Assembly: GCA_963709905.1 (NCBI GenBank)
Contig: CAVPYI010000001.1
Location: 595,329 to 659,328, forward strand
Reading direction: 5' to 3'
DNA: 64,000 nucleotides
From: an uncultured Gemmatimonadales bacterium
Lineage (GTDB): Bacteria > Gemmatimonadota > Gemmatimonadetes > Gemmatimonadales > GWC2-71-9
Of the stretch, positions 10,356-41,142 are shown piece by piece. Numbering within the stretch: position 1 is the stretch's first letter; each line of letters begins with the position of its first letter. The position numbers were made by a program, and so were the translations under genes. The notes beneath the pieces are model-generated. The model saw only the letters and a list, made by a program, of their open reading frames with translations. It had not been told where the DNA came from and searched no databases.

Positions 10356-11858
<1,503 letters not shown>

Positions 11859-11886
11859 CCGGGCTTCGCGGGTGCGGGCGGGCCGC

Positions 11887-17730: not shown

Positions 17731-19178
<1,448 letters not shown>

Positions 19179-19179
19179 A

Positions 19180-19270: not shown

Positions 19271-19284
19271 GACGGAGATCGATA

Positions 19285-22614: not shown

Positions 22615-23072
22615 TGACCAGCGTAAGCGAGCTGTACCAGAGCCTTATCCTCGATCACAACCGCGCTCCCCGGAATTACCGGCCCATGCCGGAGGCGAAC
22701 CGGGAGGCGGAAGGGTACAACCCGCTCTGCGGCGATCAGCTCAAGGTCTGGCTCAAGCTCGATGGCGATCAGATCTCGGACGTCAGCTTTCAGGGGTCGG
22801 GTTGTGCCATCTCGAAGGCTTCGGCCTCGCTCATGACCATGGTCGTCAAGGGGAAGACCATCGGGGAAGCGTCCAGGATGTTCGAAAGCTTCCATCGGAT
22901 GGTGACGGGGCGGGGCGGGCCGGCCGACGATCTCCCGCCCAAGCTCGCGGTGTTCGCCGGGATCCGCGAGTATCCGGCCAGGGTAAAATGCGCCAGTCTC
23001 TCCTGGCACGCCCTCAAGGCCGCGCTGGAGGAGGCTGGGAAACCACAGATATCGACTGAAACGGGAGACTGA
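22614..23072 (+). CDS. sufU: SufU / IscU-like sulfur acceptor
   Basis: ATG at 22614 overlaps the sufS stop. LYQSLILDHNRAPRNYR...NPLCGDQL...GSGCAISKASASLM...ARVKCASLSW, with three conserved Cys in the SufE2/SufU pattern. Confidence 0.9.
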   Translation: MTSVSELYQSLILDHNRAPRNYRPMPEANREAEGYNPLCGDQLKVWLKLDGDQISDVSFQGSGCAISKASASLMTMVVKGKTIGEASRMFESFHRMVTGRGGPADDLPPKLAVFAGIREYPARVKCASLSWHALKAALEEAGKPQISTETGD

Positions 23073-23073
23073 A

Positions 23074-23505
23074 ATGCCTTACGATCCACGCCTCGTGCAG
23101 CCAATGCGCGACGAAATGACCGGCATGGGAGCCACGGAACTGCGGACCGTCGCGGAAGTCGACACGACGCTGGGCGACGCCCGGGGCAGCACGCTGGTGT
23201 TCGTCAATTCCGTCTGCGGCTGCGCGGCAGGTGGAGCCCGGCCTGCCCTGGCGCTCGCCTTGAAACACCCGAATCGGCCTCAGCAGGTGGTGACCGTCTT
23301 CGCCGGTCAGGACACCGATGCCGCCGCGCGGGCCCGCCAGTACTTCGCCGACTACGCGCCGAGCAGCCCGTCGATCGCTCTCCTGCGCGACGGCGAGGTG
23401 GTGCATTTCGTCCATCGCCACATGATCGAGGGTCACACGCCCCAGGATGTGGCCCGCGACCTCGTGGCGGCGTTCGACCAGTACTGCGCACCCTCACAGG
23501 TCTGA
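23074..23505 (+). CDS. bacilliredoxin-like (YphP/YqiW, DUF1094) thiol-disulfide protein
   Basis: 143 aa with the CGC redox motif in the family-typical context VFVNSVCGCAAGGARPA. Starts 1 nt after the sufU stop. Confidence 0.75.
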   Translation: MPYDPRLVQPMRDEMTGMGATELRTVAEVDTTLGDARGSTLVFVNSVCGCAAGGARPALALALKHPNRPQQVVTVFAGQDTDAAARARQYFADYAPSSPSIALLRDGEVVHFVHRHMIEGHTPQDVARDLVAAFDQYCAPSQV

Positions 23506-23515
23506 CGGCCGCGGC

Positions 23516-23815
23516 ATGTCCGGTCACGTCTTCCACCCAGGCCATTCCGAACTCCACGGCATCACCGTGCTGGTCGAAACGACGGGCGATGCCGTGTACG
23601 TCGGTCGGTATCATGAGGAGACGCCGGCGGGGGTGCTGCTTCATGGAGTCGCGGAACACCGGCCGTCCACGTCGGGACCGACTCGGCGCGAATTCGTGGA
23701 AAAGACGCTCAAGTTCGGGGTGAGGCCCGCCCGCGAACACCTGGTGATACCCCGTCAGGACGTCCGTTCGATCACCCGCCTCGTGGAGTGGGCCGCCCGG
23801 GCTGACAGCCCGTAA
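23516..23815 (+). CDS. hypothetical protein (99 aa), last gene of the suf cluster
   Basis: ATG at 23516 within ORF 23447..23815 gives MSGHVFHPGHSELHGITVLVETTGDAVYVGRYHEETPAGVLLHGVAEH... No family recognised. Confidence 0.5.
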   Translation: MSGHVFHPGHSELHGITVLVETTGDAVYVGRYHEETPAGVLLHGVAEHRPSTSGPTRREFVEKTLKFGVRPAREHLVIPRQDVRSITRLVEWAARADSP

Positions 23816-23859
23816 TCGTCCTCGAATCGCGGCTCACCCCTTCCGCATCTCATCCCGAC

Positions 23860-24075
23860 TCAGGGCCACACCTGCTCACCTTCATCGTCGATGAGGGTGA
23901 TCGCGTCGACCGGGCAGGCCCTGGCGGCCAGCAGAATGCGCCTGCTCTTTGCCCCCTCCGGGTCGAGCACGACGTAAATATCCTGTTCGTCGAGTTCGAA
24001 CACCTCAGGCGCCAGGGACACACACCGTGCGTTGCTCTCGCAGAGCTCCGGGTTGACGATGATCCGGTAGGGCAT
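23860..24075 (-). CDS. small single-cluster ferredoxin
   Basis: ATG at 24075 within ORF 23860..24255 gives MPYRIIVNPELCESNARCVSLAPEVFELDEQD...ARACPVDAITLID. This is the CxxxxxC...CP pattern of 3Fe-4S/4Fe-4S ferredoxins of the P450-partner type. Confidence 0.8.
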   Translation of the reverse strand: MPYRIIVNPELCESNARCVSLAPEVFELDEQDIYVVLDPEGAKSRRILLAARACPVDAITLIDDEGEQVWP

Positions 24076-24342
24076 CGGGGTTGATTCGCCGGCGACTCCC
24101 CACTTACCAGCGGACCCGCGATTGAGCAAGACTTGTTGGGCAGGACAAGTATGCTTGACATCAGGCAGGGCAAGCCGCAACCTACGAGCTTCCGGACCCA
24201 CCGCCTGCCTGGTGGTCAGCTGACGGTCGGGCGTTGCAAGCAGGGGATTCTCCATGTCGCTGACCGGGCTCCGCCTTCAACTCGATCTGACCGCTGGTCG
24301 GGCCGGTCTTGCCGGTCCGGCCCCGACTCGAAACCCGCGTCC

Positions 24343-24537
24343 ATGAAGGGCCGTCTTCGGGAGCTGCGTGCCGAACGGGGCTGGTCTCAGGGAGAGTTGG
24401 CGGAACGTCTCGGGGTGTCGCGACAGACGGTCAACTCGATCGAGACCGGCAAGTACGATCCCAGTCTGCCACTGGCCTTCGAAATCGGCAGGCTGTTCGG
24501 GCGACGAATCGAGGACATCTTTACCCCCGAGCGCTGA
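24343..24537 (+). CDS. XRE-family short HTH regulator
   Basis: ATG at 24343 gives MKGRLRELRAERGWSQGELAERLGVSRQTVNSIETGKYDPSLPLAFEIGRLFGRRIEDIF, a Cro/C1 HTH. Confidence 0.85.
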   Translation: MKGRLRELRAERGWSQGELAERLGVSRQTVNSIETGKYDPSLPLAFEIGRLFGRRIEDIFTPER

Positions 24538-24592
24538 CGCGCATCGCAACCTCATCCGCGGGCACCGCGCCTACCCACTCCCGAAGGACGCC

Positions 24593-25546
24593 ATGAGCAC
24601 CATGGTCATTACTGTCGACCGTGTGACCAAGCGCTACGCCGGGCACACCGCAGTCCAGAGTCTTTCCCTGTCGGTTCCCCAGGGTGGCATCTTCGGCCTC
24701 CTGGGTCCCAACGGGGCCGGAAAGACCACCACAATCCGAATGCTGCTGAGCATCATCACGCCGGACGAAGGGTCGATCACTCTGTTCGGGCAGGAGGCCA
24801 CCGGCCGTCAGCTCTCCGCCCGAATCGGGTACCTGCCCGAGGAGCGCGGGCTGTACCCCAAGATGAAAGTCCTGGATCAGCTGGCCTTCCTGGGCGAGGC
24901 CAAGGGGTTGTCCCGCTGGGACGCCCGGAATCGTGCCCGGGCGTGGCTGGAGCGCCTGGGTCTGAACGACTGGGGCCTGCGCAGGGTCTCGGATCTTTCG
25001 AAGGGGATGCAGCAGAAGGTCCAGTTCGCGGGGGCCCTGCAGCACGACCCGGAGCTGGTAGTCCTTGACGAGCCGTTTGCCGGGCTCGATCCGGTGAACA
25101 GCCAGGTCATGCGTGACGTCGTGGTTGAATTCGCCCGGAGCGGGCGTACAGTGCTGTTCTCGACTCACATCATGGAACAGGCGGAGAAGATGTGCGACCG
25201 GATCGCGATCATCGCCCGGGGACAGAAGATCGTCGATGGTACCATGTCCCAGGTCAAGCGCGAGGCCGGCGGGAGCCACGTGGCGCTGAGTTTTTCGCGG
25301 AATGCCTCGAACGCGGGACCCGTATTGGCCGATCGATCGCTGGTCGCCAGCGTTGACGATGCGGGGGCGAGCGCCGAAGTCGGGCTGGCGGCCGGTGCCG
25401 ATGCCGAACGGCTGCTTCGAGCCCTGATTGCCGCCGACGTGGGCCTGGCCCGATTCGAGGTGGTGGAACCCTCGCTGCAGTCGATCTTCATTTCGAAGGT
25501 CGGCCTGGATGCCGCCCGGCCCGATGCCCGTCAGGAGGTGGCATGA
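24593..25546 (+). CDS. ABC transporter ATP-binding protein (ABC-2/NatA-like exporter)
   Basis: ATG at 24593 within ORF 24368..25546. Walker A GPNGAGKTT, signature LSKGMQQK, Walker B LVVLDEPFAGLD. Confidence 0.9.
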   Translation: MSTMVITVDRVTKRYAGHTAVQSLSLSVPQGGIFGLLGPNGAGKTTTIRMLLSIITPDEGSITLFGQEATGRQLSARIGYLPEERGLYPKMKVLDQLAFLGEAKGLSRWDARNRARAWLERLGLNDWGLRRVSDLSKGMQQKVQFAGALQHDPELVVLDEPFAGLDPVNSQVMRDVVVEFARSGRTVLFSTHIMEQAEKMCDRIAIIARGQKIVDGTMSQVKREAGGSHVALSFSRNASNAGPVLADRSLVASVDDAGASAEVGLAAGADAERLLRALIAADVGLARFEVVEPSLQSIFISKVGLDAARPDARQEVA

Positions 25547-26859
25547 ACAAGGTCTTCGCGGTCATCCGCCGGGAGTTCCTCGAGCGGGTCCGGACCAAGT
25601 CATTCCTGATCGGCACCGTCCTCGTTCCGGCCATTTTCGCCGCGCTGGCCGTGCTGCCGGAACTTCTCATCAAGCGGGAAACCCGCACCCGTGGTGTCGT
25701 GGTGCTCAACGCCGCCGCCGGCGACATAGCCGCCCGGATCGATACCGCGCTGGGGCAGCAGCGGATCGGGCCCGACTCGATTCCCCGCTACACCGTCACC
25801 CTCATTCCGGCGGCCGGGCGGGTGGATGCTCTCCGGGACTCGATCGTCGACCAGATCGGTCGGCGGGAGGGATCGGCGAACGCGCCCGACGGGGTAATCG
25901 TCCTGACCGACGAAGGCGTGGAAACCGGTAACGTCACCTACCTGGGCTCCGATGTCACCAGTTTCCGCAATGTCAGCAGGCTGGAGGGCACACTCGAGCC
26001 CCTGCTGCGGCAAGAACGGCTGGCCCGACGGAACGCCGACTCGGCCCTCCAGGCAGCCGCGGCCGTCAGGCTCCGGCTGCAGACCCAGAAAGTGACCGAG
26101 GGCAAGGTGACCGGCGAAAGCGGCGAGACCTCGTTCCTGCTGGCCTACGCCGTCGACATGTTCATGTACGTCTCGCTCCTCCTGTACGGCGTGCAGGTCT
26201 TGAGTTCCGTCATCGAAGAGAAGACCAACCGCATCGTCGAGGTGCTGATTTCGAGCCTGTCTCCGTTCGAACTCCTGCTCGGCAAAGTCCTCGGCGTAGG
26301 GGCGGTCGGACTGCTCCAGTTGAGTATCTGGGCCGGGACCGGGTTCTACATCGCCGGAATGCTCAGCTCGCGATCGGCCGGTGACGCCGGAGTCGTGGGG
26401 CCGGAGGCTGCCCAGGCGGGACTGCAGATGCCGAACATCACGCCGGATCTGGTCGGCGTCGTCCTGTTGTTCTTCCTGCTGGGCTTCTTCCTGTACGCCG
26501 GGTTGTATGCCGCGGTAGGGTCGATGTGCAGCACGCAGCAGGAGGCCCAGCAGACTGCCACCCCGGTGACCATGATCATCGTGATTGGAATGATCTTCAT
26601 GTTCTCGCTGGTGAACGAACCCTCGGGCAGTCTGGCGACAGTCATGACGTTCATCCCGTTCTTCACTCCCCTGGTCGTACCGGTGCGGTACGCGATCTCC
26701 CCCCTGCCGATCGGAGAAGTCCTGCTCGGCGTGGCGGTCATGATCCTGGGGATCCTCGCGGTGGTCTGGGTCGGTGCCCGGATCTATCGAGTCGGCATCC
26801 TCTCCTACGGGAAGAAACCGAGCCTGCGGGAGTTGTGGCGATGGCTGCGAACGTCCTGA
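25543..26859 (+). CDS. ABC-2 family permease (NatB-like)
   Basis: 438 aa. An N-terminal TM helix, a large extracytoplasmic loop and then five or more TM helices. Its start overlaps the ATPase stop (ATGA). Confidence 0.85.
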   Translation: MNKVFAVIRREFLERVRTKSFLIGTVLVPAIFAALAVLPELLIKRETRTRGVVVLNAAAGDIAARIDTALGQQRIGPDSIPRYTVTLIPAAGRVDALRDSIVDQIGRREGSANAPDGVIVLTDEGVETGNVTYLGSDVTSFRNVSRLEGTLEPLLRQERLARRNADSALQAAAAVRLRLQTQKVTEGKVTGESGETSFLLAYAVDMFMYVSLLLYGVQVLSSVIEEKTNRIVEVLISSLSPFELLLGKVLGVGAVGLLQLSIWAGTGFYIAGMLSSRSAGDAGVVGPEAAQAGLQMPNITPDLVGVVLLFFLLGFFLYAGLYAAVGSMCSTQQEAQQTATPVTMIIVIGMIFMFSLVNEPSGSLATVMTFIPFFTPLVVPVRYAISPLPIGEVLLGVAVMILGILAVVWVGARIYRVGILSYGKKPSLRELWRWLRTS

Positions 26860-26958
26860 TCCCGGCGGTGTAGGCCCGGCCTGCCAGGGCGGGGGATCGG
26901 CCAGCCGCCGGTTCCCCGCCGCTCCCCTTCCGCCATCCTCCCCAGTAGCTTGGCTGGC

Positions 26959-28836
26959 ATGCTTCACTACGACGTCATCGTCATCGGGGGCGGCCACGCC
27001 GGCGCCGAGGCCGCCAGCGCTGCGGCTCGCATCGGGGCTCGCACACTCCTGCTCACTCAGAACCTGGAAACGATCGGGCAGATGTCCTGCAATCCCGCCA
27101 TCGGGGGCGTCGCGAAGGGCACGGTCGTTCGGGAGGTCGATGCACTGGGCGGGATCATGGGGCGGGCGACGGATCGGGCCCGGATTCAGTTCCGGATGCT
27201 CAATCGTTCGAAGGGCCCCGCAGTCTGGTCCCCCAGGGCGCAGTGCGACCGGGGCCTCTACCGCCGAGCGGTTCGGACGCTGCTGGAGCGCCAGCCCGGG
27301 CTTGAATTCGCACAGGGTACTGTGTCAGGCATCTCAATCTGGGTGGCGCTGTGAGTGGCGTGACCACCCTGGAGGGACGTCAGTTCACCGCCCGTCGCGT
27401 GGTTGTGACGGCGGGGACGTTCCTCCGGGGCCGGATTCATATGGGCCTGTCGACCCAGATTCCGGCTGGACGGGCCGGCGATCCACCGTCCGGCGAGCTA
27501 TCGCAAGTCTTTGAGGCATATGGACTTACAGTCGAACGCTTCAAGACTGGTACGCCGCCGCGGATCGATGGCCGCAGCATCGATCTTCGGCGGTTCGAGC
27601 GGCAGGATGGTGATTCGGATCCGTATTGGTTCTCGTATCACGAACGCGCACTCCTCCTGACCCAGCTGCCCTGCTACCTGGGCTGGGCCGGGACCGAGGT
27701 ACGGGCCGTGATTGAGCAGAACCTCGGGGAGTCGGCACTGTACGGCGGCGCCATCAGCGGTCGGGGGCCGCGATACTGCCCTTCAATCGAAGACAAGATC
27801 GTCAAGTTCCGGGACGCCGAGCGGCATCAGATCTTCCTGGAGCCCGAAGGGACTCGACACCGCGGAAATGTACGTAAACGGGCTGTCGACGTCCCTTCCG
27901 GTTTCAGGTTCAGGAATCGATGCTCCGCGCGGTTCCGGGCCTGGAGTCGGTGCGGATGACGCGGGCGGGCTATGCCATCGAGTATGACTACTTCCCGCCG
28001 ACTCAGCTCAGCGCCACTCTGGAGGTCGAAAGGCGTTCAGGGCCTGTACCTCGCTGGTCAGGTGAACGGAACCACCGGCTACGAGGAGGCCGCCGGTCAG
28101 GGCCTGATGGCAGGAGCGAACGCGGCGCTGTCGGCGCTGGATCGAGAGCCGCTACTTCTCCGGCGTGACGAAGCAATGATCGGCGTGTTGGTCGATGATC
28201 TGGTTACCAAGGGAGTGGACGAGCCCTATCGGCTGTTCACTTCGCGGGCGGAGTACCGGCTCCTGCTGCGGCAGGACAACGCGCTTCGTCGGCTGCTGCC
28301 CGTAGCCGAACGCCTGGGGCTCCTGAGCGGGCCGGAGCGCGGGGCGGCGGAGGCCAGGCTCCGAGAGGAAGAGGCCCTGCGTCAGTATTCCGAGGAGACG
28401 GCCATCGCCCCGAGCTTGGCGAATCCCTTGCTCGAGGGGGCGGGTGCGCAGGCGATCGGTGAGCCGGTGCGGATCTCCGAGCTGGTCCGTCGCCCCGGAG
28501 TTCGCCTGGCTGAGCTGCTGAGAGTGGTCTCGTGGGAGGGCGATGCGGCGCTGGCCGACTGGGCCGACATTGAATTCAAGTACGAGGGGTATCTCCTGCG
28601 CGAGCGCGAGGCGGCCGCTCGCCTGAGTTCGATGGAGGATTTCAAACTGACCGGTCGACCTCCCATACATGGGCTTCGCCTCCCTTTCCTTCGAGGCCAG
28701 GGAGAAGCTCTCAGCCCTGCGCCCGGAGTCACTCGGCCGGGCCGGTCGGATCCCGGGCGTGTCGCCCAGCGACCTCCAGAACCTGGTTCTCGAGGTGCTG
28801 AAGTGGCGCCGAAACCGGGAGGTTTGCCTGGCCTAG
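26959..28836 (+). pseudogene. mnmG: tRNA uridine-5-carboxymethylaminomethyl modification enzyme MnmG (GidA), reading frame broken at least 5 times
   Basis: Fragments in different frames:
- ORF 26950..27354: [16 protein letters not shown]...MSCNPAIGG
- ORF 27351..27959: VVVTAGTFLRG...GPRYCPSIEDKIVKF...FLEPEG
- ORF 27712..27987: [17 protein letters not shown]
- ORF 27920..28168: [19 protein letters not shown]
- ORF 27972..29195: [21 protein letters not shown]...[15 protein letters not shown]
My translation of a further frame gives [39 protein letters not shown], ending at TAG 28834-28836. Confidence 0.9.
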
Positions 28837-28840
28837 GAGG

Positions 28841-28856
28841 TGTTTCACGTGAAACA
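28841..28856. other. parS centromere-like site (perfect consensus)
   Basis: TGTTTCACGTGAAACA is a 16-bp perfect palindrome identical to the widely conserved parS consensus. It lies 5 nt after the mnmG stop and 145 nt before parA. Confidence 0.9.
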
Positions 28857-29001
28857 TCCCGGTTCGATCGCCGGGTTCCAGCCGATTCGCTGTTTCGCTA
28901 TCGAGTCGATGGCCCTTATATTCCGCCAACCGTCGAGCCCCCCGCGTGCATTATTCCGCATGTTTTCGACGTCAAGTTTTTATATAACAATATCTTAAAA
29001 A

Positions 29002-29841
29002 ATGGCAAGAGTCATCGCGATCGCGAACCAGAAGGGCGGCGTCGGGAAGACGACCACGGCCGTCAACCTCGCGGCTTCACTGGCAATCGCGGAGCGAAAG
29101 ACGCTCCTGGTGGACGCCGACCCGCAGGGGAATGCCACCAGCGGCGATCGGGCTCAGGAAGGACCAGCTGCGTTACGCGCTCTATGATGTGCTGATCGAA
29201 GGACGTCCCGCCAAGGATGTGCTGGTCAACGACACGACCCTTCCCTACCTGGACATTCTCCCGGCGACTCAGGACCTGGTCGGGGCGGAACTCGAGCTGG
29301 TGGAACGCACCGGCCGCGAAGGCGTGATGCGGCGAGCGCTCGAAGGCGTGCGGGACTCCTATGAGTTCATTCTGATTGACTGCCCACCGTCGCTGGGGCT
29401 GATCACGCTGAACGTCCTGGCCGCGGCGGACGGCGTGCTCATTCCCATCCAGTGCGAGTACTACGCGCTCGAGGGCATTTCGCAGCTGTTGAACACCATC
29501 AAGCTCGTCCAGCAGAACTTCAACCCGCAGCTCGCGATCGACGGCGTGCTGCTCACGATGTACGACTCGCGGGTCAACCTGTGCCGTCAGGTGGCCGCCG
29601 ACGCCAAGGAGTACTTCGGCGCCCGGATGTTCCCGACCGTCATCCCGCGGAATGTCCGGCTGGCCGAAGCGCCCAGTTTCGGGAAGCCGATCCTCCTGTA
29701 TGACGTCCAGTCGGTGGGCGCCAAGAGCTACCTCTCGGTGGCCCAGGAGCTGGTACGCCGGGTGGAGGGCGGGACGCGCGCGGAGGGGCCACGCTCCCCA
29801 GGGAACCGCGAGTGCCGGCGACCAGCCTCGAGGGAGAGTAG
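29002..29841 (+). pseudogene. parA: chromosome partitioning ATPase ParA (Soj), frameshifted
   Basis: ORF 29002..29187 gives [28 protein letters not shown]...[11 protein letters not shown]. Reading continues in ORF 29132..30184 as [16 protein letters not shown]...ILIDCPPSLGLITLNVLAAADGVLIPIQCEYYALEG. One shift near 29145 is certain. A second near 29790 is inferred, because the original frame terminates at TAG 29839-29841 just before parB. Confidence 0.85.
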
Positions 29842-29849
29842 ACCGAGGC

Positions 29850-30725
29850 ATGAGCGAGACCAAACGCCTGGGCCGCGGCCTCGAGGCCCTGCTGGGGCCG
29901 ATCTCCCGGCAGGAGGCGGAAGCGAGCGGGTCGCTGCAGGAGCTGCCGGTCGCGAACATCCTGCCCAACCCGTACCAGCCGCGATCCAAGCTGGACGAGC
30001 CGCAGTTTTCGGAGCTGGTCGCCTCGCTCGAAACGACGGGGCTGCTGCAGCCGATCGTCGTCCGGAAACATCTCGACGGCTACCAGCTGATTGCCGGCGA
30101 GCGCCGCTGGCGCGCCGCGCATCAAGCTCGGGTGGCAGAAGATCGCCGCGGTCATCAAGGAAGCGGATGACCGCACCCTCCTGACCCTGGCCCTGGTCGA
30201 GAACCTCCAGCGCGACAATCTCTCCGCCATCGAGGAGGCCACCAGCTATCAGCGCCTGCTCGACGAGTTCCAGCTCTCACCAGGCGGATGTGGCCCGACT
30301 GGTCGGCCGCAATCGCTCCACGATTGCCAACGCCCTCCGGCTCCTCAAGCTGCCCCTCGAGGTGTCGGAAATGGTGGACGACGGACGGCTCTCGGAGGGC
30401 CACGCCCGCGCGCTGCTGGGTCTCACCGACCGGAGCCAGATCTCGCGTCTGGCCGCAGCGGGCCGCGGAGCAGGGCTGGTCTGTGCGCGATCTCGAGTCC
30501 AAAGGTGCGCTCCGGCCGGCCAGCCGGCTCTCGCAAGGAACCGGTACGCCAGCTGTCCCCGGCGCACCGCCGGGTCGAGGACAGCCTGCGCAAGCGGCTC
30601 GGCACGGACGTGCAAGGTCACCGCACGCCGTCGGGGCACGGGGCCAGGTCGCGGTCAGCTACTACTCGGAGGAGGATCTCGCCCGGATTCTGGAATTGAT
30701 TCTGGGCGAACCGTTCCGCGGATGA
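29850..30725 (+). pseudogene. parB: chromosome partitioning protein ParB (Spo0J), frame broken at least 6 times
   Basis: Pieces alternate among three frames: MSETKRLGRGLEALLG...IAGERRWRAA / LGWQKIAAVIKEADDRTLLTLALVENLQRDNLSAIEEATSYQRLLDEFQLS / ARLVGRNRSTIANALRLLKLPLEVSEMVDDGRLSEGHARALLGL / AEQGWSVRDLE / RRVEDSLRKRLGTDVQ / VAVSYYSEEDLARILELILGEPFRG-stop at 30725. Confidence 0.85.
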
Positions 30726-31525
30726 CCGGCGCGCCACGTCACGATCGTCGTCCACGCCGACGGGTCGCTGACCAGTCGCACCGTCCGGGTTCCCCGCTGG
30801 GCTGTTCCGGAGCCTGATCGCCGGGGCGATCGGTCTCGCGGCCCTGATTCTGCTTGGCCATGGCCCTCTACCTCCCCATCGCGGCCGGAGCCGCGCGGGT
30901 TCCAGGGCTGGTCCGGGAGGTGGAACGGCTCGAGGCGGAGAACCGGAAGATCGGGGAACTGGTCGCTGCCCTCGACAGCGCCGAGCGGCGATACGACCGG
31001 ATTCGTGCGATGCTCGGCGCGGACATCGTCCCTGACCCAGTCCAGCTCGCGGCCACGCTCCCTGTCGCGCCGGCGATTCGGGCGCGACTGGCCGGCTCCG
31101 GCAGGCGACCCGGAGCCGGACCATCCGAACCGCGCCACTGGCCGCTGGACGATGCCGGGTATGTGACGCGCGGCCAGGCGGCGGCGGGGCCCGGGGGCAA
31201 TACTGGCGTAGAGGTACATCCCGGCGTCGACATCGCGGTGCCTCCCGGCAGCCCGGTCCGCGCGGCCGGCGGGGGCACGGTGCTGCAATCCGGCCAGGAA
31301 GCCGAGTACGGCCTGTTCGTCCTGATAGAACATCCCGGTGGTTACCAGACCATGTATGGACACCTGAGCCGCGTCACCGTAGCCGCCGGTCAGGCGGTCG
31401 ACGCACGCCAGGTGGTCGGTTTGTCAGGCAACACCGGGCGGTCGAGTGCGCCTCATCTCCATTTCGAGATCCGCCGCGACGGTCAGGCGATTGATCCCCA
31501 CACCATGGTCAAGGAGCAGAGCTGA
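30722..31525 (+). pseudogene. M23 (LytM-type) metallopeptidase, N-terminal region frameshifted about 3 times; C-terminal 223 aa intact (ORF 30854..31525)
   Basis: ATG at 30722 overlaps the parB stop (ATGA). The N-terminal pieces MTGAPRH / VTIVVHADGSLTSRTVRVPRWAV / LIAGAIGLAALILLG lie in different frames. The catalytic domain has HPGVDIAVPPGSPV...GNTGRSSAPHLHFEIR. Confidence 0.8.
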
Positions 31526-31999
31526 TGGCCATCTTCTCGCGTCCCGCGCAGTCCGGGCGCCACGATTCCCAGGCCCGCCGGAGCGAACCCGCCGGGCTCA
31601 CGATCATCGCCATCGGGACGACCATCGTCGGCGACGTCGTAAGCGAGGGCGTGGTCAAGGTCGAAGGAAACGTCGAGGGCACCATCCGCGCGGGCTCCCA
31701 ATTGCTGGTCGCCCAGGGCGCGATGATTCGCGGCGACGTCTTCGCCTCCGAAATCGTCGCCGGCGGCGAGATCCACGGGGGTGTAACCGCGGGGGAACGG
31801 GTCGAGATCCAGGTCGGGGCCGATGGTCGCCGGCGACATCCGCACCCAGCGGATTCATATCGCGGACGGCGGACGGGTGAATGGCCAGATCACGATGGAA
31901 CCGGGGGGTGAGCCGGTCCGAACGCGCCGCTGTTGCGGAACGGAGCGAAGCTGTCGAGGATTCCGACGGAGTAAGGAGTCGGACTTCCACAATCGTTGA
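31525..31999 (+). pseudogene. bactofilin (DUF583) cytoskeletal protein, frameshifted near 31820
   Basis: ATG at 31525 overlaps the M23 stop (ATGA). Bactofilin beta-helix repeats: IIAIGTTIVGDVVSEGVVKVEGNVEGTIRAGSQLLVAQGAMIRGDVFASEIVAGGEIHGGVTAGERVEI. The repeat continues in another frame as VAGDIRTQRIHIADGGRVNGQITM. The 3' end is uncertain. Confidence 0.75.
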
Positions 32000-32086
32000 T
32001 AAGTCGCCCGAACTTGTGGAAACACTGGGACTTTCCTTCGTTACATTGCCCGCTAGTGTATCGTCGCTGTCGCATAAACTGTCACT

Positions 32087-33067
32087 ATGCTGCGTCTTTG
32101 CTTCCTGGCAGCGGGACTGTTGGGACTTCTCAGTAGTTGCGTCGAGAAACCTGCGGTAGCGGGCTTCCGCGTCGGCCTGGTGACGCCCGGCTCGATCGCG
32201 GACGCGGCCTGGAACTCGGGGGCCTACCACGGACTCGAAGCCATCCGGGATTCCACCGGGGCGACGGTCAGCCACGTGGAAGCCCGAACTCCGGCGGAAC
32301 AGGAAGAGGCGCTCCGCACCTACGCGGCGCAGGGATACGACCTGGTGTTCGGCCACGGATTCGAGTTCCAGGGCGCGGCCGAGCGAGTCTCGGAGCAGTA
32401 CCCCAGCACGGTCTTCATCGTGACCTCCGGCGAGCGGGTTGCCGGGAACGTGTCTCCGCTGATCTTCCGGCTTTCCGAAGCCAGCTACCTGGCCGGAATG
32501 GTGGCCGGCGGGATGACGAGGACGAACACCTCGGATTCGTCGGTGGAATCGAACTGCCTCCCATCAAGCTCGCGGAGGATGCCTGGGAGGCCGGGGCCAG
32601 GGCCGTGAACCCCGCGGTGAACGCCCGCTCGACCTACCTGAACACGTTCGACGACGTGGCAGCGGGACGGGAAGCGGCCATCGCCCTGATCCGGGTTGGA
32701 GCGGACATGCTCCATCACAATGCGGATCAGGCTGCCCTGGGCGCTTTTCAGGCCGTCAAGGAGTCGCCGGGCGTCTATATCTTCGGATCGAACCTGGACC
32801 AGAAGGACCTTGCTCCGGACCGGGTGCTCGGCTCGGCGGTGATCGACCTGCCGCGGGCGTTTCTGATGGTCGCCCGGGAGGTGAAGGCCGGAGGATTCCG
32901 GCCGAAGGTGGAGTCGTTCGGTCTCAGGAGCGGCGTGATTCGCTACGAGCCGAACCCCTCGCTCGAAGGACGCGTGCCGGAAGCGCTCCGCTCCCGGGTC
33001 GTCGGCCGCCCGGGATTCGATCAGCGCGCCGAATCTCGGGGAGCCAGCCTCCCGGTCGCCCTCGTGA
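32087..33067 (+). pseudogene. BMP-family (PnrA/Med-like) ABC transporter substrate-binding lipoprotein, at least 2 frameshifts
   Basis: Lipobox LLGLLSSC. ORF 32087..32608 gives FRVGLVTPGSIADAAWNSGAYHGL...GYDLVFGHGFEF. Reading continues in ORF 32137..33354 as LGFVGGIELPPIKLAEDAWEAGARAVNP...FGSNLDQ. A third frame ends at TGA 33065-33067, overlapping the next gene's start as GTGA. Confidence 0.8.
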
Positions 33068-33867
33068 GCGACGCGGTGCTACTGGCGGAGGTCGTCAGTT
33101 ACCTCGACGACTACCTGCGCATCGCGGACGTTCCCGACGATGCCAATGCCCTCAACGGTCTGCAGGTCGAGAACAGCGGCCGGGTCGGCCGTCTCGTCGC
33201 GGCGGTGGACGCGTCCCAGGCCACGATCGATGGCCTGCCGGCTGCGAGCAGCTCATCGGGAGCGCGCCCCCGCTGCTGCTCGTGCACCATGGCCTGTTCT
33301 GGGACGGGAACAGGCCGGTTACCGAACGCCGGTACCGGCGGCTGCGCACGCTGATCGAGCGCGACACCGCGCTGTACTCGGCCCACATCCCGCTCGACCT
33401 CCACCCGGAGGTCGGTAACAACGCCGTGCTGGCCAAGCGGCTGGGGCTCACGTCGCTCCGGCCCGTTCGGCAGCCCACAAGGGGTCGCTGATCGGAGTTG
33501 CGGGAACGGCACCGACCGATGGCGCCAGCCCTCGGCGGACTGGTCACCCGGGTGGCGTCCGCGCTTTCGATTCGGTCGGAAGCCATCCGGGTGATCGCGG
33601 GCGGCCCGGATCGGATTTCCCGGATAGGCGTGATCACGGGTGGCGCCGGCAGCGCCATCGATCAGGCCCGGGCGGCCGGCTGCGACACGTTCATCACCGG
33701 TGAAGGCGCGGCGCATACGTTCTTCGACGCGATGGAGGGCGGCATCAACGTGCTCTACGCCGGCCACTATGCCACCGAAACGGTCGGAGTGCAGGCGCTG
33801 GCTGATCACCTGGCCGAGCGCTTCGGGCTTCCCTGGGAGTTCCACGACCATCCCGACGGGGATGTAG
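33064..33867 (+). pseudogene. Nif3-family dinuclear-metal protein (YbgI-like), at least 4 frameshifts
   Basis: Pieces: LAEVVSYLDDYLRIADVPDDANALNGLQVENSG / LLLVHHGLFWDG...LYSAHIPLDLHPEVGNNAVLAKRLGL / GSLIGVAGTAP / ISRIGVITGGAGSAIDQARAAGCDTFITGEGAAHTFFDAMEGGINVLYAGHYATETVGVQAL...FHDH / PTGM-stop at 33865-33867. Confidence 0.8.
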
Positions 33868-33926
33868 GCGGAGCCACGGCCCCGGTCGCGCGACCGGCCC
33901 ACCTGATGCGCGGTATCTTCCCCGTC

Positions 33927-35380
33927 ATGCCGTCCTCTGCTGCAGCTCTCCGCGATCTCGAAGCGCTTCGGTCCGGTCGAGGCTCTGCGTGGGGTGGACT
34001 TCTCGCTGGAGGAAGGCGAGATCCACGCGCTGCTGGGGGAGAATGGCGCCGGGAAATCGACCCTGATGCGGATTGCATACGGTCTGATCCGGCCGGATGC
34101 CGGGACCGTCGCCGTCAGCGGGACGCCGATCCGATTGCGTGGCCCGGCCGATGCTCGCCGCCACGGCCTCGGAATGGTCCACCAGCACTTCACCTCGATC
34201 CAGCGCCTCACCGTCCTCGAGAACGTCGCCCTGACCGCAGGGTGGCCCACCAGGCCGCGGGAAAACCGGAGCCGGATCCGTGCTCTCCTGGTCCGGACCG
34301 GACTCCGGCTCGATCCCGAAGCAATTGCGGAGGACCTCTCGGCCGGCTTGAAGCAGCGCCTCGAAGTCCTCAAGGCGCTGGCCGGCGATGCCCGGATCCT
34401 GCTGCTGGACGAACCCTCGTCGGTCCTCTCGCCCGCCGAAGCCAGGGTCCTGCTCGAACTCGTGGCCAGCTTTCGGGCCCGCGGGATCTCGACCGTGCTC
34501 ATCACCCACAAACTGACCGAGGCCCTGGAAATCGCGGACCGGGTGACGATGCTGCGCCGGGGCACCGTGGTTCATTCGGGCCGGTCCGCCGGGGAGACTG
34601 CCGAGTCGCTCGCTCGACAGATGCTGGGGGAGGCCCCTCCGCGACGAAGGCCCCGGGTTCGGGCCGACGTGGGGACGTCCGGGTGAGCGCGCGCGAAATG
34701 TCGCTTCCCAGGCTGGGATCGAGCGGGACCGATCTCGCCGCGCGACGTTCTCGGCCTGTGCTGGAGAGGTGGTGGGAATCGCAGCCGTCGAAGGCAACGG
34801 GCAGCGTGAACTTCTCAGAGCAATCGCCGGAGTGGCGCGGCCTGCCGCGGGCTCGCTCTCGGTGAGCGGGCCGGTGTCGTTCATTCCCGAGGACCGGACC
34901 GGAGAAGCGCTGATCGCCGGGTTTTCAGTGACCGAAACGCTGGTCCTGAGCCAGGGCAGTCGGCGCCATGGGTGCGTGGTCCGTGGGTCGACTGGAAGAT
35001 GGCCGCTCAACGGGCTGCCGAACTGATCGGCAGCTTCGGGATCCAGGCACCTGGTCCCGAGGCGGCGGTCCACGGCTTGAGTGGAGGGAATCAGCAGCGC
35101 TTACTGATCGCAATGGCGCTCGAACGGCGACCAGCGGTGCTGGTTGCCGAGAATCCGACCCGGGGCCTCGACCTGAGAGCTACGGCCGAGGTGCTCGATC
35201 GCCTTCGTGGGGCGGCCCGACACGGGGTGTGCGTCATCGTCCATCTGACCGATCTGGACGAGTTGCTCGAGCTGGCCGATCGCGTGCTGGTGGTTGCGAA
35301 CGGGGTGGCGACGGAGGTTCACCCGAACCGCCACTCGAGACGAAATCGGGCGCCGGATGCTGGGCGACCAGGTGACATGA
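33927..35380 (+). pseudogene. two-domain ABC transporter ATPase of the BMP/nucleoside-type importer, at least 5 frameshifts
   Basis: Pieces: MPSS / LQLSAISKRFGPVEALRGVDFSLEEGEIHALLGENGAGKSTLM...LSAGLKQRLEVLKAL...LLLDEPSSVL (ORF 33994..34686) / VGIAAVEGNGQRELL (ORF 34769..35026) / LSGGNQQRLLIAMAL...LVAENPTRGLD (ORF 34972..) / DEIGRRMLGDQVT-stop at 35378-35380. Confidence 0.8.
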
Positions 35381-36420
35381 AGAGAGCGCGCTGGCTGGTG
35401 GACATCGTGCCGGCGGTCGCGGCACTGGCCGCTGGTCTCGTGGTGCTGGCGATCGGTCTCGGGGTCAGTGGGTACGACGCCGGAACCGCCCTCGCCGCCC
35501 TCTGGGGCGGGGCCTTCGGCTCCACCGACGCGGTGCTTTCGGCCCTCCTCCCCAGGGCCATCCCGCTCATTCTCGTGGGCCTCGCCGTCGGGCTCGGATT
35601 CCGCGCTGGGGCTTTCAATATCGGAGCCGAAGGGCAGTTCTACGCCGGTGCGCTGGCCGCAACATGGGTCGGCCTCGCTCTGGCGTCCTGGCCGCGGGTG
35701 ATCGCTGTTCCTTCGGTGCTGGTTGCTGCAGTCGTGGCCGGCTTCCTGTGGGTCACGGTCCCGGTGATCCTGCGGATTCGTTTCGGCGTGCTGGAGGTGA
35801 TCAGCACCCTGTTGCTCAACTTCGTCGCCGAAGCGCTGGTGAGCTGGATGGTGCAGGGACCGCTGCAGGAGTCCAAACACATCTACCCGCAGAGCGACCC
35901 GCTCCCGATGGCGGCCCGCCTGCCACAACTGCCGGGAACCCGATTGCATCTTGGACTGTCGGTCGCGCTCGTTCTGGCAGCCGGGCTGTGGGTCTTCGGA
36001 CGCCGCGCACTGGCCGGCTTTCAGCTCCGGGCAACGGGCAGCAATCCGATTGCGGCCCGCCTGCTCGGAGGGGTGGACACCCGCCTGATGTTCGCCGCCG
36101 CGCTGCTCGGGTCCGGCGCCATTGCCGGCCTCGCCGGCGGAGTCGAGGTCTCGGGAACCACCTACGCGCTGTTCCAGAATCTTTCCCCCGGGTATGGCTT
36201 CACCGGCATTGCGGTCGCCCTGCTCGCCCGCCTCCACCCGCTGGCCACGATCTTCACCGGACTGCTGTTCGCCGCGCTGGAGGCCGGTGCCAGCGCCATG
36301 CAGCGTGAGGCCGGGGTGCCAGCAGTGGCGGTATACATGGTCGAGGCGGCGGTAATAATCGTGGTACTGCTGGCCGACGTCTGGCGCCAGCGTCGGGCCC
36401 TGCTCCGCGGAGGGCCCTGA
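35377..36420 (+). CDS. ABC transporter permease (BMP/nucleoside-type importer, first permease)
   Basis: ATG at 35377 overlaps the restored ATPase stop (ATGA). 347 aa intact: MKRARWLVDIVPAVAALAAGLVV...FNIGAEGQFYAGAL...GFTGIAVALLA. The track fuses it to the ATPase fragment as ORF 34972..36420. Confidence 0.85.
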   Translation: MKRARWLVDIVPAVAALAAGLVVLAIGLGVSGYDAGTALAALWGGAFGSTDAVLSALLPRAIPLILVGLAVGLGFRAGAFNIGAEGQFYAGALAATWVGLALASWPRVIAVPSVLVAAVVAGFLWVTVPVILRIRFGVLEVISTLLLNFVAEALVSWMVQGPLQESKHIYPQSDPLPMAARLPQLPGTRLHLGLSVALVLAAGLWVFGRRALAGFQLRATGSNPIAARLLGGVDTRLMFAAALLGSGAIAGLAGGVEVSGTTYALFQNLSPGYGFTGIAVALLARLHPLATIFTGLLFAALEAGASAMQREAGVPAVAVYMVEAAVIIVVLLADVWRQRRALLRGGP

Positions 36421-36423
36421 GCG

Positions 36424-37329
36424 ATGGAAGCCGCTCTGCTCGCCTCGTTTCTGGCCGCCGCCGTCCGGGTGGCCACTCCGTTGCTGCTGGCGGCCCTGGG
36501 AGAAACGATTTCCGAACGGGGCGGTGTGATCAACCTGGGGACGGAAGGCGCGATGCTCGCGGGCGCGCTGGGCGCTGCGGTTGGGGCGACACATGGCGGC
36601 GTCTGGTACGGCCTCCTGGTCGCGACCGCGGCAGGACTCGTTGTCGCGGGGGCCTTCGCCGCGGTCGCCGTGGTGGCGCGCGCCGATCAGATCATTACGG
36701 GGACCGCCATTACGCTCGGCTGTATCGGGCTCACCGGGGCGGTCTATCGCCAGGCCTATGGCCCAGGTGGCGTCGGACTCAGCCTTCCGACCCTGCCCGA
36801 AGTGCCCGTGCCGGGCCTGGAGAGAATCCCGGTACTCGGACCGGCGCTGTTTCAACAGAGCGCGCTGACCTATGCCGGCTACCTGGCGGCTCCACTGCTC
36901 TGGTGGTTGCTGTTTCGAACGCCCTTTGGGCTGAGGCTGCGGGCCGCGGGGGAATCTGCCGAACACGCGAGGGCGGCCGGAGTCCATGTTGAAAGGACCC
37001 GTACGGCCGGGGTACTGATCGGCGGTGCGCTGGCGGGTCTGGCGGGGGCCAGTCTGGTGCTCGCACAGGTGGGCACATTCGCCGAGGAGATGACCGCCGG
37101 GCGCGGATTCATGGCAATCGCCATCGTGGTGCTCGGGGGTTGGCATCCCGTCCGGGTGCTCGGCGCAGCGCTGTTCTTCGGCGCGGCCATGGCGCTTCAA
37201 TTCCTGTTCCAGTCGTCGCTGACTGGAGTCCCCTACCAGCTGTTCCTCATGCTGCCCTATCTCCTCACCCTGCTGGTTCTGGCGGGAGCGGTGGGCCGAA
37301 CCCGGGCACCTGAGGATCTGGGGAGGTAA
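36424..37329 (+). CDS. ABC transporter permease (second permease)
   Basis: 301 aa: LLLAALGETISERGGVINLGTEGAMLAGAL...GRGFMAIAIVVLGGWHP. Typical of the branched-chain/ribose-type permease fold. Confidence 0.85.
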   Translation: MEAALLASFLAAAVRVATPLLLAALGETISERGGVINLGTEGAMLAGALGAAVGATHGGVWYGLLVATAAGLVVAGAFAAVAVVARADQIITGTAITLGCIGLTGAVYRQAYGPGGVGLSLPTLPEVPVPGLERIPVLGPALFQQSALTYAGYLAAPLLWWLLFRTPFGLRLRAAGESAEHARAAGVHVERTRTAGVLIGGALAGLAGASLVLAQVGTFAEEMTAGRGFMAIAIVVLGGWHPVRVLGAALFFGAAMALQFLFQSSLTGVPYQLFLMLPYLLTLLVLAGAVGRTRAPEDLGR

Positions 37330-37333
37330 GCGT

Positions 37334-38083
37334 TCAGGCGGTAGGCGCCTCGATCCGGGCCCGGGCCGCCGCGATCGCCTGCCACACGGTGGTCTTGAGA
37401 GACTCGACGTCCGCTGCGGTCAGCCCGGCGGTTTCCACCGGCTCGAGCACACACACTTCCGCCTCCGACCGACCGATCCGCCAGCCGTGCTTGGGCAGCG
37501 CGGTCCTGGTTCCGTGCACCGCTAACGGGAGGATCGGCACACCGGAATCGATGGCCAGCCTGAAGGCCCCGTCCTTGAACGGCTGCATGTGGCCGGTCGC
37601 CGATCGGGTTCCTTCGGGGAAGATGACCACCGACACCCGCTGGCCCAGGAAGTCGCGGCAGCGCTGCATCGCTTTCACGGCGCTCCGCGTCGTCCCGCGC
37701 TCCACCGGGACATCGCCGGCCAGCCACATGTCCCACCCGAGCACGGGGATTCGGAGGATCTCCACCTTGGAGAGCCATTTCATTTCCCAGGGCAGATGGC
37801 TGATCAGCAGGATGTCAACGAAGGACTCGTGATTCGAAACGACGACGTACGGGTTCCGTGGATTGGCCGGCATGGTCCCGGTGACCCGGAAGCGCCAGAG
37901 CGGATTCAGGGTGGCGGTCACCACCGCGACCTGCCGGAAGAACAGCCCGGCCCAGTACCGCCCGGGGTCAAACGGGGCGGTGACTATCCGGATCACGGCG
38001 AGCAGCGGGAGCCAGACCACCAGACAGGTGGCGAGCACTATCCAGGTCCAGAGCGAGACGATGGTGATATACAGTCGGGACAT
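37334..38083 (-). CDS. plsC: 1-acyl-sn-glycerol-3-phosphate acyltransferase
   Basis: Acyltransferase motifs NHESFVD (HX4D) and IFPEGTRS, plus an N-terminal TM segment. Confidence 0.9.
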   Translation of the reverse strand: MSRLYITIVSLWTWIVLATCLVVWLPLLAVIRIVTAPFDPGRYWAGLFFRQVAVVTATLNPLWRFRVTGTMPANPRNPYVVVSNHESFVDILLISHLPWEMKWLSKVEILRIPVLGWDMWLAGDVPVERGTTRSAVKAMQRCRDFLGQRVSVVIFPEGTRSATGHMQPFKDGAFRLAIDSGVPILPLAVHGTRTALPKHGWRIGRSEAEVCVLEPVETAGLTAADVESLKTTVWQAIAAARARIEAPTA

Positions 38084-38144
38084 AGGCGCGACGTTCAGGA
38101 AGAATGGCCACGGGAACCGGCACGACGGCGCGGGTTGAACGCGG

Positions 38145-38507
38145 TTACTCCTCGGGTATGCGATCGTCCCACAAGGCGATGATGTTGCCGTCGGGATCCG
38201 AGATCATGGCCATGACGCCGAACGACTGCCGGGTCGGTTCGGCCACGAAGCGCACTCCGCGCTGGTGCAGCCGCTCGCAGAGTTGGAGGATGCCCTCCAC
38301 GTGCAGGGTGATGCCGGTGTGCCGTCCCACGAGGGCCTTAGCCTCGGGATGAACCGCCGGGTGCACGGCCAAGTGCGCCGGTCCCTCCAGGAACTCGGCT
38401 CCGAACGAACCTTCGCGGGCTACGGGCAGGCCGAGGTCATCGCGATAGAACGCCCGGGCCCGATCGATATCGGCGACAAACACCGCGATGGAATGCAGGC
38501 TGGGCAT
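38145..38507 (-). CDS. VOC (glyoxalase/bleomycin-resistance fold) protein
   Basis: 120 aa: SIAVFVADIDRARAFYRDDLGLPV...ISDPDGNIIALWD. Confidence 0.85.
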   Translation of the reverse strand: MPSLHSIAVFVADIDRARAFYRDDLGLPVAREGSFGAEFLEGPAHLAVHPAVHPEAKALVGRHTGITLHVEGILQLCERLHQRGVRFVAEPTRQSFGVMAMISDPDGNIIALWDDRIPEE

Positions 38508-38539
38508 GACGCATTGTACCTGCGAGCCGCATCACGGCG

Positions 38540-39472
38540 CTAGCGAAGTGACTCCCAGGCCGCCTTCCAGTTCCGCCGCATGCCTTTCAGCCCCGGGCGC
38601 GCCAGGGGCGTGTCTCCAAACCGCCGGGCGAACTCCTCCTCCCCCAACTCCTCGAAGAAGTCGGGGCCGGCGCTGGCGAGATCCTCGCGGGGGCGGAATT
38701 CGGGAATCGTCGACCGTTCCGCGAAGCGCTCGTTCCAGGGACAGACCTCGTTGCAGATGTCGCAGCCGAACGCCCAGCCTGAGAGCCGATCGCCGAATTC
38801 GGGCGGGATGGCCCCCTTGTACTCGATCGTCAGGTAGGAGATGCACCGGGTGGCGTCGAGCTCCCTCGGACCCGGAAAGGCGCCGGTCGGACAGGCGTCC
38901 AAACACCGGGTACACGAGCCGCAATGATCGGTCGTGAGGGGTGCATCGACCTCCAGCGGCAGGTCGGTCAGAATCGCGCCGATGAAGAACCAGGATCCCA
39001 CGCCGGGACGGAGGAGCATGGTGTTCTTGCCGATCCATCCGAGTCCGGCGCGCTGGGCGAGTTCGCGTTCGGCGAGCGGCCCGGTATCGACATACGCGCG
39101 GGCGACGGCGGCGCCGTGCTGTCGGAGAAACGTGGCCAGCTGCTCCAGCCGAGCCAGGGTAACGCCGTGATAGTCCGCCCCGCGGGCGTACCGGGCTATG
39201 ATCGGCCTGGCGTCCGGGGAATCCCGGGGTGGCGTCGGGTGGAGGTAGTTCTCCAGCACCATCACGGCGCGGCGGGCAGCCGGGTCGACCAGGGCCGGGT
39301 TCTTCCGTTTTCTGGCCTGGCGATGCAGGTACCGCATGTTGCCGGCGTAGCCGGAATGGAGCCAGCGGTCGAACGCCTCCGCGTGCGGGAGCGGGTCGAG
39401 GGCGGTCACTCCGCAGGCGATGAAGCCGAGTTCAGCGGCCATGACCTTCACCGCCGAGGTGGAAAGGCTCAT
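38540..39472 (-). CDS. queG: epoxyqueuosine reductase
   Basis: YARGADYH, GLGWIGKNTMLL, and the two 4Fe-4S motifs CGSCTRCLDACPTGA and CDICNEVCPWN. Confidence 0.95.
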   Translation of the reverse strand: MSLSTSAVKVMAAELGFIACGVTALDPLPHAEAFDRWLHSGYAGNMRYLHRQARKRKNPALVDPAARRAVMVLENYLHPTPPRDSPDARPIIARYARGADYHGVTLARLEQLATFLRQHGAAVARAYVDTGPLAERELAQRAGLGWIGKNTMLLRPGVGSWFFIGAILTDLPLEVDAPLTTDHCGSCTRCLDACPTGAFPGPRELDATRCISYLTIEYKGAIPPEFGDRLSGWAFGCDICNEVCPWNERFAERSTIPEFRPREDLASAGPDFFEELGEEEFARRFGDTPLARPGLKGMRRNWKAAWESLR

Positions 39473-40803: not shown

Positions 40804-40840
40804 AGACGGGTTTCAGAGGGTAGCGGCCAGCGCCCCGGTC

Positions 40841-41116: not shown

Positions 41117-41142
41117 GATAACGACAGTATATTCTCCCCTCC

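Follow-up and report, generated by a model that had tools for sequence, protein, structure and literature searches.

Eight consecutive genes in a metagenome-assembled genome (MAG) of a Gemmatimonadales bacterium, starting with mnmG, parA and parB, are broken into alternating reading frames, which raises the question whether the breaks belong to the organism or to its assembly. The window analyzed here is a stretch of 64,000 nucleotides taken from a deposited contig of 1,025,020 bp (NCBI/ENA). An earlier note, made from the letters of the window, had placed roughly 25–30 frameshifts in this block and had preferred localized low-quality sequence as their cause. To count frameshifts, a frameshift-aware dynamic programme was applied to align intact reference proteins with the DNA of the window; it took the place of blastx against the open reading frames (ORFs) of the relatives L005, L006, and L008, which was too coarse and gave gapped HSPs spanning adjacent shifts. 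Frameshift-aware alignment to intact homologues together with DNA alignment gives 32–33 coding frameshifts across the eight genes, between positions 27339 and 35371, so that the earlier total was slightly low, while each of its per-gene counts was either right or a lower bound. In the frameshift-aware alignment, 24 of the coding frameshifts are +1 and 7 are –1, and the proteins are found in broken frames rather than in one continuous frame, with five breaks in MnmG and six in ParB.

All affected genes lie on the + strand. In mnmG (26959–28836) the five frameshifts, one –1 and four +1, are located at 27340, 27849–52, 27907, 28027–8, and 28651–3, and the corrected protein is identical at 617 of 623 positions (99%) to the intact MnmG of 624 aa encoded on contig L001. 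The following spacer between mnmG and parA (28837–29001) holds at least four single-base indels, with extra bases at 28861–2, 28906, 28951, and 28959. Two frameshifts interrupt parA (29002–29832), at 29146 (+1) and 29783 (–1), and the match of its in-frame piece to Pfam AAA_31/CbiA starts only at profile position 49. Six +1 frameshifts are found in parB (29850–30722), at 30119–20, 30279–80, 30455–6, 30499–501, 30613, and 30638–9; corrected ParB and the intact ParB on the more distant contig L083 share 269 of 289 residues (93%). The M23 peptidase gene (30722–31525) carries three +1 frameshifts within its first 140 nt (30728, 30801–2, and 30858–9), the remainder being single-frame, and after correction its product agrees with the intact copy on L084 in 253 of 264 residues (96%). 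Three further +1 frameshifts lie in the bactofilin gene (31525–31971; at 31820–2, 31913, and 31950), and three frameshifts in the gene of a Bmp-family lipoprotein (32056–33064; at 32076–7, 32530–1, and 33000–1), whose copy on L085 is intact with 339 aa. The NIF3 (DUF34) gene (33064–33863) has four to five, at 33255–9, 33458–62, 33472–5, and 33529–30 and, in the DNA alignment only, at 33855, and its copy on L085 encodes an intact protein of 265 aa. Six frameshifts affect the two-domain ABC ATPase gene (33927–35379; at 33936–7, 34660–7, 34739–40, 34955–8, 35325–6, and 35371), and the corrected ATPase is identical to the L002 copy at 481 of 490 positions (98%). The lesion at 35371, which lies 6 nt upstream of the stop, is the last one, and the end of the block is therefore not at about 35335 as had been claimed. 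After correction of the frames, no in-frame stop was found in any of the genes aligned.

The regions on either side of the block were reported before as clean, and the comparison supports this. Contigs of the Logan run ERR14788471, which were assembled independently of the deposited contig from either the MAG's own sample or another one, nearly tile the block, covering window positions 21759–29460 (L001), 30093–31640 (L084), 31804–33882 (L085), and 33894–43686 (L002). Over the 12,428 flank bases covered by these contigs there are two substitutions and no indels. A 7-state coding-frame HMM splits the block into 17 short segments, four of which it calls "non-coding," while in the 56 kb of flanks all coding segments end at a stop in their own frame, with the single exception of an ambiguous spot at 62.5–62.9 kb. 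Confident Pfam domain matches, mostly of whole domains, were obtained for 17 of the 19 flank ORFs scanned, and no Pfam match was obtained for the flank ORFs at 61111–62499 and 62418–62885. Likewise, in the comparison with L083 (run SRR13378645), a contig of 82% nucleotide identity, ±1 indels within coding sequence are restricted to the block. As to the origin-proximal position that the earlier note had mentioned, a suf operon lies upstream of the block, and no dnaA was found among the scanned ORFs. Neither tRNAs nor Rfam families were detected in the window, and no RNA element thus explains the block.

The eight genes are all carried intact by L001, L084, L085, L002, and L083, with L083 unbroken from parB through the ATPase gene, and the lesions are missing from every independent assembly compared. 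All five broken fragments that were looked up (P0001, P0124, P0125, P0126, and P0128) are confined to the deposited contig, and all three flank proteins (P0122, P0123, and P0129) are also present in the Logan assembly. An exact look-up with the M23 piece P0001 returned no contig, and when JGI metagenome contigs were scanned twice with patterns that span position 28027 and allow zero or one extra base, there was no match to either version of the site, intact or shifted. A scan of genome contigs with the M23 fragment placed the clade in the Gemmatimonadales, among them many MFD MAGs with long contigs; the best relatives among the species representatives scanned have 70–82% DNA identity and are too far away to match inserted bases with alternative alleles.

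An alignment to relatives with a list of every indel, which had been proposed as a check, gives 51 indel events relative to the ERR14788471 contigs, in a zone at 27339–35371 (+ strand). Nearly all are 1 nt in size; 38 of them add a base to the window, and the other 13 are missing bases (about 3:1). The ratio of indels to substitutions amounts to ~0.15, which is far higher than natural ratios for coding DNA. All 51 events fall within a larger tract of 9 kb, 26985–35979, which the earlier note had not recognized and in which the window departs from the otherwise identical ERR14788471 contigs. This tract begins inside mnmG and ends inside the gene of an ABC permease (35377–36420, + strand), and the block hence ignores gene boundaries, as had been noticed. 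The permease gene is one intact frame, the first 600 nt of which belong to the divergent tract and differ from L002 by 18 substitutions (third codon positions in 12 cases), before the window becomes identical to L002 from 35980 onward. The divergence is mosaic, with ~1–2% at 27.0–29.1 kb, 6–8% at 29.15–33.5 kb, ~0.5% at 33.5–34.5 kb, and 2–3% at 34.5–35.98 kb, and it shifts abruptly, e.g., at ~29140. Third codon positions account for 253 of 331 substitutions (76%), and for those genes that were compared at the level of codons, 157 codon changes are synonymous and 40 nonsynonymous. As judged from these comparisons, the substitution pattern is that of natural divergence under purifying selection, neither of noise nor of neutral decay, and with about three quarters of the changes affecting the third base of a codon, the patch would be a real, functional, and different haplotype that carries technical indels. 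No intact copy of the central haplotype (29.15–33.5 kb) was found in a collection of ~15 billion proteins or among the contigs compared, the nearest intact copies having 92–93% DNA identity. Contigs built from k-mers break up inside the block, and a contig of a second run, ERR12037370, starts ~300 bp from its right edge. Strain heterogeneity is what the evidence points to as the underlying cause of the block. Taken together, the intact genes on the ERR14788471 contigs, the uniqueness of all five fragments, the lack of in-frame stops after correction, and the richness in synonymous substitutions bear out the preference for localized low-quality sequence, and we are highly confident, on these sequence comparisons, that the frameshifts are technical consensus errors in the assembly and not biology.

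Several other explanations have to be weighed against this reading. Miscalling of homopolymer length by the sequencing chemistry, which the earlier note had listed among the possible error sources, could appeal to a few sites at which a length change in a short run restores the frame, namely GGG at 27341–3, where a G was thought to be missing, and an AAA run near 28030. However, the intact copy puts both lesions outside runs, the first being an A missing after 27339 (the intact copy reads ISIMGG) and the second an extra C at 28027. Among the 22 extra bases that are well defined against close references, the run length is 1 for 13, 2 for 9, and at least 3 for none, which follows the background distribution of 54, 32, and 14%; moreover, such miscalling would not respect the boundaries of a 9-kb tract, and we regard it as very unlikely. 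An error associated with a motif (methylation) was rejected, as no sequence motif common to the indel contexts was found and as it would not be limited to 9 kb. Programmed ribosomal frameshifting or another kind of recoding has in its favor that frame changes exist and nothing more; it would have to explain 32–33 shifts in eight unrelated genes at sites without a common motif, while the homologues on L001, L002, and L083–L085 are all single-frame, and its probability is negligible. Genuine inactivation in the strain, whether the block decayed or hypermutated locally in place or was imported by recombination as a copy already decayed, has in its favor that a distinct haplotype whose flanking sequences equal those of another population is the pattern expected of a recombinational import, and that parAB and mnmG are not universally essential. 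Yet only two flank substitutions in 12.4 kb leave no time for ~50 indels in place, neutral decay would spread the substitutions evenly over the codon positions instead of leaving 76% at third positions, and neither the absence of in-frame stops nor the high proportion of indels, nearly all of a single nucleotide, fits decay. The lesions are, in addition, not seen in any independent assembly compared, and eight adjacent and functionally unrelated genes would all have to be dispensable. This origin appears highly improbable to us. It is equally improbable that the indels are real in the sense that a recombined 9-kb mnmG–parAB–ABC segment suffered a burst of single-base insertions and lost eight housekeeping genes at once; if true, a mutational process targeted to the segment or the import of relic, damaged DNA would be needed. 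A decaying duplicate, i.e., a second copy, was also rejected, since the genes of the block are arranged as in L005, L006, L008, and L083, each of which has a single intact copy.

A variant of the artifact itself is the collapse of mixed haplotypes into one consensus, in which reads of at least two co-occurring strains, up to ~8% apart at this locus, were piled on one edge and the consensus or polishing step combined alleles site by site into a chimera and introduced indels wherever the alignments had slipped. The mosaic divergence of 0.5–8% from the ERR14788471 population with its abrupt steps speaks for it, as does the absence of the central haplotype from the protein collection, which is what a purely artificial chimera predicts. 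Indels introduced in error, and with them apparent frameshifts, have also been documented where divergent alleles were collapsed to one consensus (Cosentino et al. 2021, PMC8445201). Against it, indels are not visibly clustered beside SNPs, their distance to the nearest SNP being not visibly below chance when the lists were judged by eye, and indels are also present at 33.5–34.0 kb despite a divergence of only ~0.5%; since the patch hardly differs from the reference population there, haplotype mixing alone cannot account for all indels. The corrected proteins look fully natural with a low dN/dS, but the same would be expected if two functional alleles had been joined in a chimera. We consider this variant a serious candidate that falls somewhat short of being probable.

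For the preferred reading, a local consensus error, the following course is the most likely. About 9 kb of the contig (26985–35979) would have been assembled from other sequence evidence than the flanks, and this patch would represent a real and functional haplotype of the same locus that is 0.5–8% away from the population matching the flanks. It carries ~40–50 uncorrected single-base indels, mainly extra bases at arbitrary sites outside homopolymers. As co-occurring strains would differ in the locus, the assembly path across it would have followed a long-read branch or gap-fill of low depth, or polishing would have drawn on several haplotypes mixed together; some indels would thus have been left in the patch, and the well-supported flanks would have been polished to perfection. 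The error profile, with 24 +1 and 7 –1 shifts and no link to homopolymers, is that of a low-depth or confused long-read consensus. The comparisons show that the indels exist, that they do not extend beyond the divergent tract, that independent assemblies are free of them, and that purifying selection shaped the underlying sequence; we infer here the sequencing platform, the depth, and the sub-mechanism, that is, a low-depth patch or a mixed-haplotype consensus. Nanopore genome bins below ~40-fold coverage were reported to require polishing with short reads (Sereika et al. 2022, PMC9262707).

Genuine pseudogene tracts of reductively evolving bacteria such as Mycobacterium leprae and recent host-restricted pathogens likewise show adjacent genes that are interrupted by frameshifts. 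Real pseudogenes, however, also gain stops, deletions of larger size, and substitutions regardless of codon position; they are dispersed across the genome and common to independent isolates; none of these hallmarks is seen in the block. Indel errors in long-read and hybrid (meta)genomes, in contrast, are likewise single-base changes that split otherwise intact genes, that are tied to low depth or insufficient polishing, and in which comparison with homologues restores the genes (PMC9262707; proovframe preprint, 10.1101/2021.08.23.457338). While the classical long-read errors occur genome-wide and are enriched in homopolymers, the errors described here form one 8-kb patch, lie outside homopolymers, and are mostly insertions. 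Collapsed-haplotype artifacts share with the block the apparent frameshifts in a heterozygous or heterogeneous region, where allelic variants close to each other cause reads to be misaligned; the published case is a diploid eukaryote, whereas the "alleles" would here be co-occurring bacterial strains in a metagenome (PMC8445201).

The frameshifts themselves are of little biological importance, and their consequence is that the deposited MAG annotates mnmG, parA, parB, and five neighbors wrongly as fragments or pseudogenes, and that the broken fragments are now present in public protein collections as singleton clusters. The block also offers a diagnostic that requires no reads and that distinguishes a patch artifact from decay: an indel-dense block coincides with a tract of synonymous and mosaic divergence, the flanks are identical to an independent assembly, and no in-frame stops are left once the frames are corrected. 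One biological observation is left: strains that occur together seem to diverge by up to 8% in the parAB-proximal segment and yet to be identical on either side of it, which suggests homologous recombination at this locus.

The coding frame, traced by a GC3 frame plot and a seven-state coding-frame HMM, switches every few hundred bases between ~27.2 and 35.1 kb, across mnmG, parA, parB and the genes for an M23 peptidase, a bactofilin, a Bmp lipoprotein, a NIF3 protein and a two-domain ABC ATPase. The HMM divides this block into 17 short segments, four of which score as non-coding, as the frame changes too fast. Genes were named by the Pfam families of their intact homologues (GIDA, ParB_N, Peptidase_M23, Bactofilin, Bmp, DUF34_NIF3 and two ABC_tran domains) and by the direct match of the window's own ParA piece to AAA_31/CbiA, which does not begin until profile position 49, consistent with its lying 3' of a shift at 29146. 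A frameshift-tolerant dynamic programme that aligned unbroken reference proteins with the window's DNA gave 5 frameshifts in MnmG, 2 in ParA, 6 in ParB, 3 each in the M23 peptidase, the bactofilin and Bmp, 4 in NIF3 and 5 in the ATPase; these 31 comprise 24 extra and 7 missing bases. DNA alignments add one near 33855 at the NIF3 3' end and one at 35371, 6 nt 5' of the ATPase stop, bringing the eight genes to 32–33 coding frameshifts, and four more indel events lie in the mnmG–parA spacer. The frame-breaking block with clean flanks described in the earlier note is confirmed, and each of its per-gene counts was correct or a lower bound.

In the 56 kb of flanks, every HMM coding segment is closed by an in-frame stop codon, apart from one unclear spot at 62.5–62.9 kb. 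At 62418-63021 (-) several short ORFs share one frame, an HMM frame boundary at 62533-62662 coincides with no ORF end, and the ORFs 61111-62499 and 62418-62885 are without a Pfam match; genes that overlap, one frameshift or an imprecise HMM call could each account for this irregularity. Among 19 flank ORFs scanned against Pfam, 17 gave confident, mostly whole-domain matches and two gave none. The window has a G+C content of 65–70% and is most closely related to Gemmatimonadales metagenome-assembled genomes. Upstream of the block lie tandem sodium:solute symporter paralogues of 500 and 518 aa (10356-13443, -) and, at 17727-23500 (+), a suf Fe-S cluster operon encoding SufB, SufD, SufS and a NifU-like protein, immediately followed by an ABC-2 transporter, which in turn precedes mnmG. 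Downstream, this bacterial genome encodes a full-length deoxyhypusine synthase homologue (43042-44172, +; Pfam DS, profile positions 9–287 of 288) and two adjacent ankyrin-repeat proteins of 440 and 540 aa with multiple Ank/Ank_2 matches (46255-47577 and 47587-49209, +), large neighbours that are unusual in a free-living soil bacterium. Neither tRNA genes nor Rfam families at gathering threshold were found in the 64-kb window. The cumulative GC skew has its minimum at ~6–8 kb and rises steadily thereafter; dnaA was not seen among the ORFs scanned in the window, so an origin-proximal position is based on parAB and mnmG only.

Intact copies of the block's genes exist in other assemblies. Exact-sequence look-up of intact flank proteins and of cluster mates of the block fragments retrieved four Logan contigs of run ERR14788471 that almost tile the block: L001 (window 21759-29460), L084 (30093-31640), L085 (31804-33882) and L002 (33894-43686). 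Their genes are single-frame throughout (MnmG 624 aa, M23 264 aa, Bmp 339 aa, NIF3 265 aa, and the ATPase). In 12,428 bases compared outside 26.5–36.0 kb, only 2 substitutions and not one indel separate the window from these contigs; within that interval the alignments contain 51 indel events (38 extra bases in the window, 13 missing). A more distant relative (L083, SRR13378645, 82% identity) is likewise intact from parB to the ATPase; compared with it, ±1 indels within coding sequence occur in the block only, and indels elsewhere are few, each sitting at a gene boundary or having a length divisible by three. Two scans of JGI metagenome contigs across one indel site returned zero matches of any form.

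Substitutions between the window and the ERR14788471 contigs are restricted to 26985-35979 and mosaic in level: ~1–2% over mnmG, 6–8% with abrupt onset from ~29146 to ~33.5 kb, ~0.5% at 33.5–34.5 kb, and 2–3% from there to 35979, followed by identity. At window 29136-29460 (L001 7370-7693) divergence leaps from ~2% to ~8–11% at ~29140-29170, exactly at the 29146 indel, which marks either a strain recombination breakpoint or a chimeric join in either assembly. Third codon positions hold 253 of 331 substitutions (76%), and codon-by-codon comparison gave 157 synonymous and 40 nonsynonymous changes, the pattern of natural divergence under purifying selection. Once the frames are corrected, no in-frame stop remains, and identity to intact homologues is 99% for MnmG, 98% for the ATPase, 96% for M23 and 93% for ParB; it follows that the sequence at this locus is a functioning allele over which the indels form a separate layer. 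Relative to the nearest unbroken homologues, the parA/parB junction and the M23 gene show in-frame length differences of 9, 6, 3 and 3 nt (29841-29849, 31092-31111, 31208-31210) that, in contrast to the single-base lesions, resemble true allelic indels. The indel zone (27339-35371) lies entirely within the divergent tract and almost fills it, which argues for one shared cause: this stretch of the contig was very probably derived from other evidence than its flanks. No intact copy of the central haplotype was found in a collection of ~15 billion proteins, as would be expected of a rare strain and of a chimera alike. In a second run, ERR12037370, a 4,957-bp contig carrying an identical 301-aa permease and downstream genes (window 36280 onwards) starts ~300 bp away from the tract's right edge, which would fit an assembly graph that branches at this place in that sample too; since k-mer contigs also break within the block, strain heterogeneity at the locus is indicated.

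True decay in place does not agree with these data. The flanks hardly differ from those of the intact population, which leaves no time for ~50 indels to build up in the block, and neutral decay would have evened out substitutions across codon positions and generated stop codons, neither of which was observed. Moreover, the lesions are seen nowhere else: the deposited 1,025,020-bp NCBI/ENA contig is the sole known source of all five broken fragments (P0001, P0124, P0125, P0126, P0128), whereas all three flank proteins (P0122, P0123, P0129) are also present in the Logan assembly. Import of a previously decayed segment displacing eight working genes is improbable and has no support. The local artefact favoured in the earlier note is thus supported by intact single-frame copies elsewhere, matching flanks and the absence of stops once corrected, except for its homopolymer detail. 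Homopolymer-error chemistry was rejected, as none of the 22 extra bases placed by comparison with close references lies in a run of 3 or more: 13 are in runs of length 1 and 9 in runs of length 2, matching background; 18 are G or C. The two lesions that the earlier note had placed in short runs read differently in the intact copy, which shows a missing A after 27339 rather than a missing G in GGG at 27341-27343, and an extra C at 28027 rather than an AAA-run lesion near 28030. Indels that are mostly insertions, fall at random positions and come with few substitution errors are the residue of a low-depth or confused long-read consensus. The artefact may have arisen in either of two ways: the assembly may have followed a long-read branch or gap-fill of low depth from a minor strain, or the consensus may have collapsed mixed haplotypes; both are documented, as Nanopore bins below ~40-fold coverage require polishing (PMC9262707) and collapsed alleles cause indel errors and apparent frameshifts (PMC8445201). 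The low-depth patch is slightly favoured by the indels at 33.5–34.0 kb, where divergence is as low as 0.5%. The frameshifts are almost certainly not real biology; what biology is left is evidence that strains occurring together, while identical on either side of this parAB-proximal segment, diverge within it by up to 8%.
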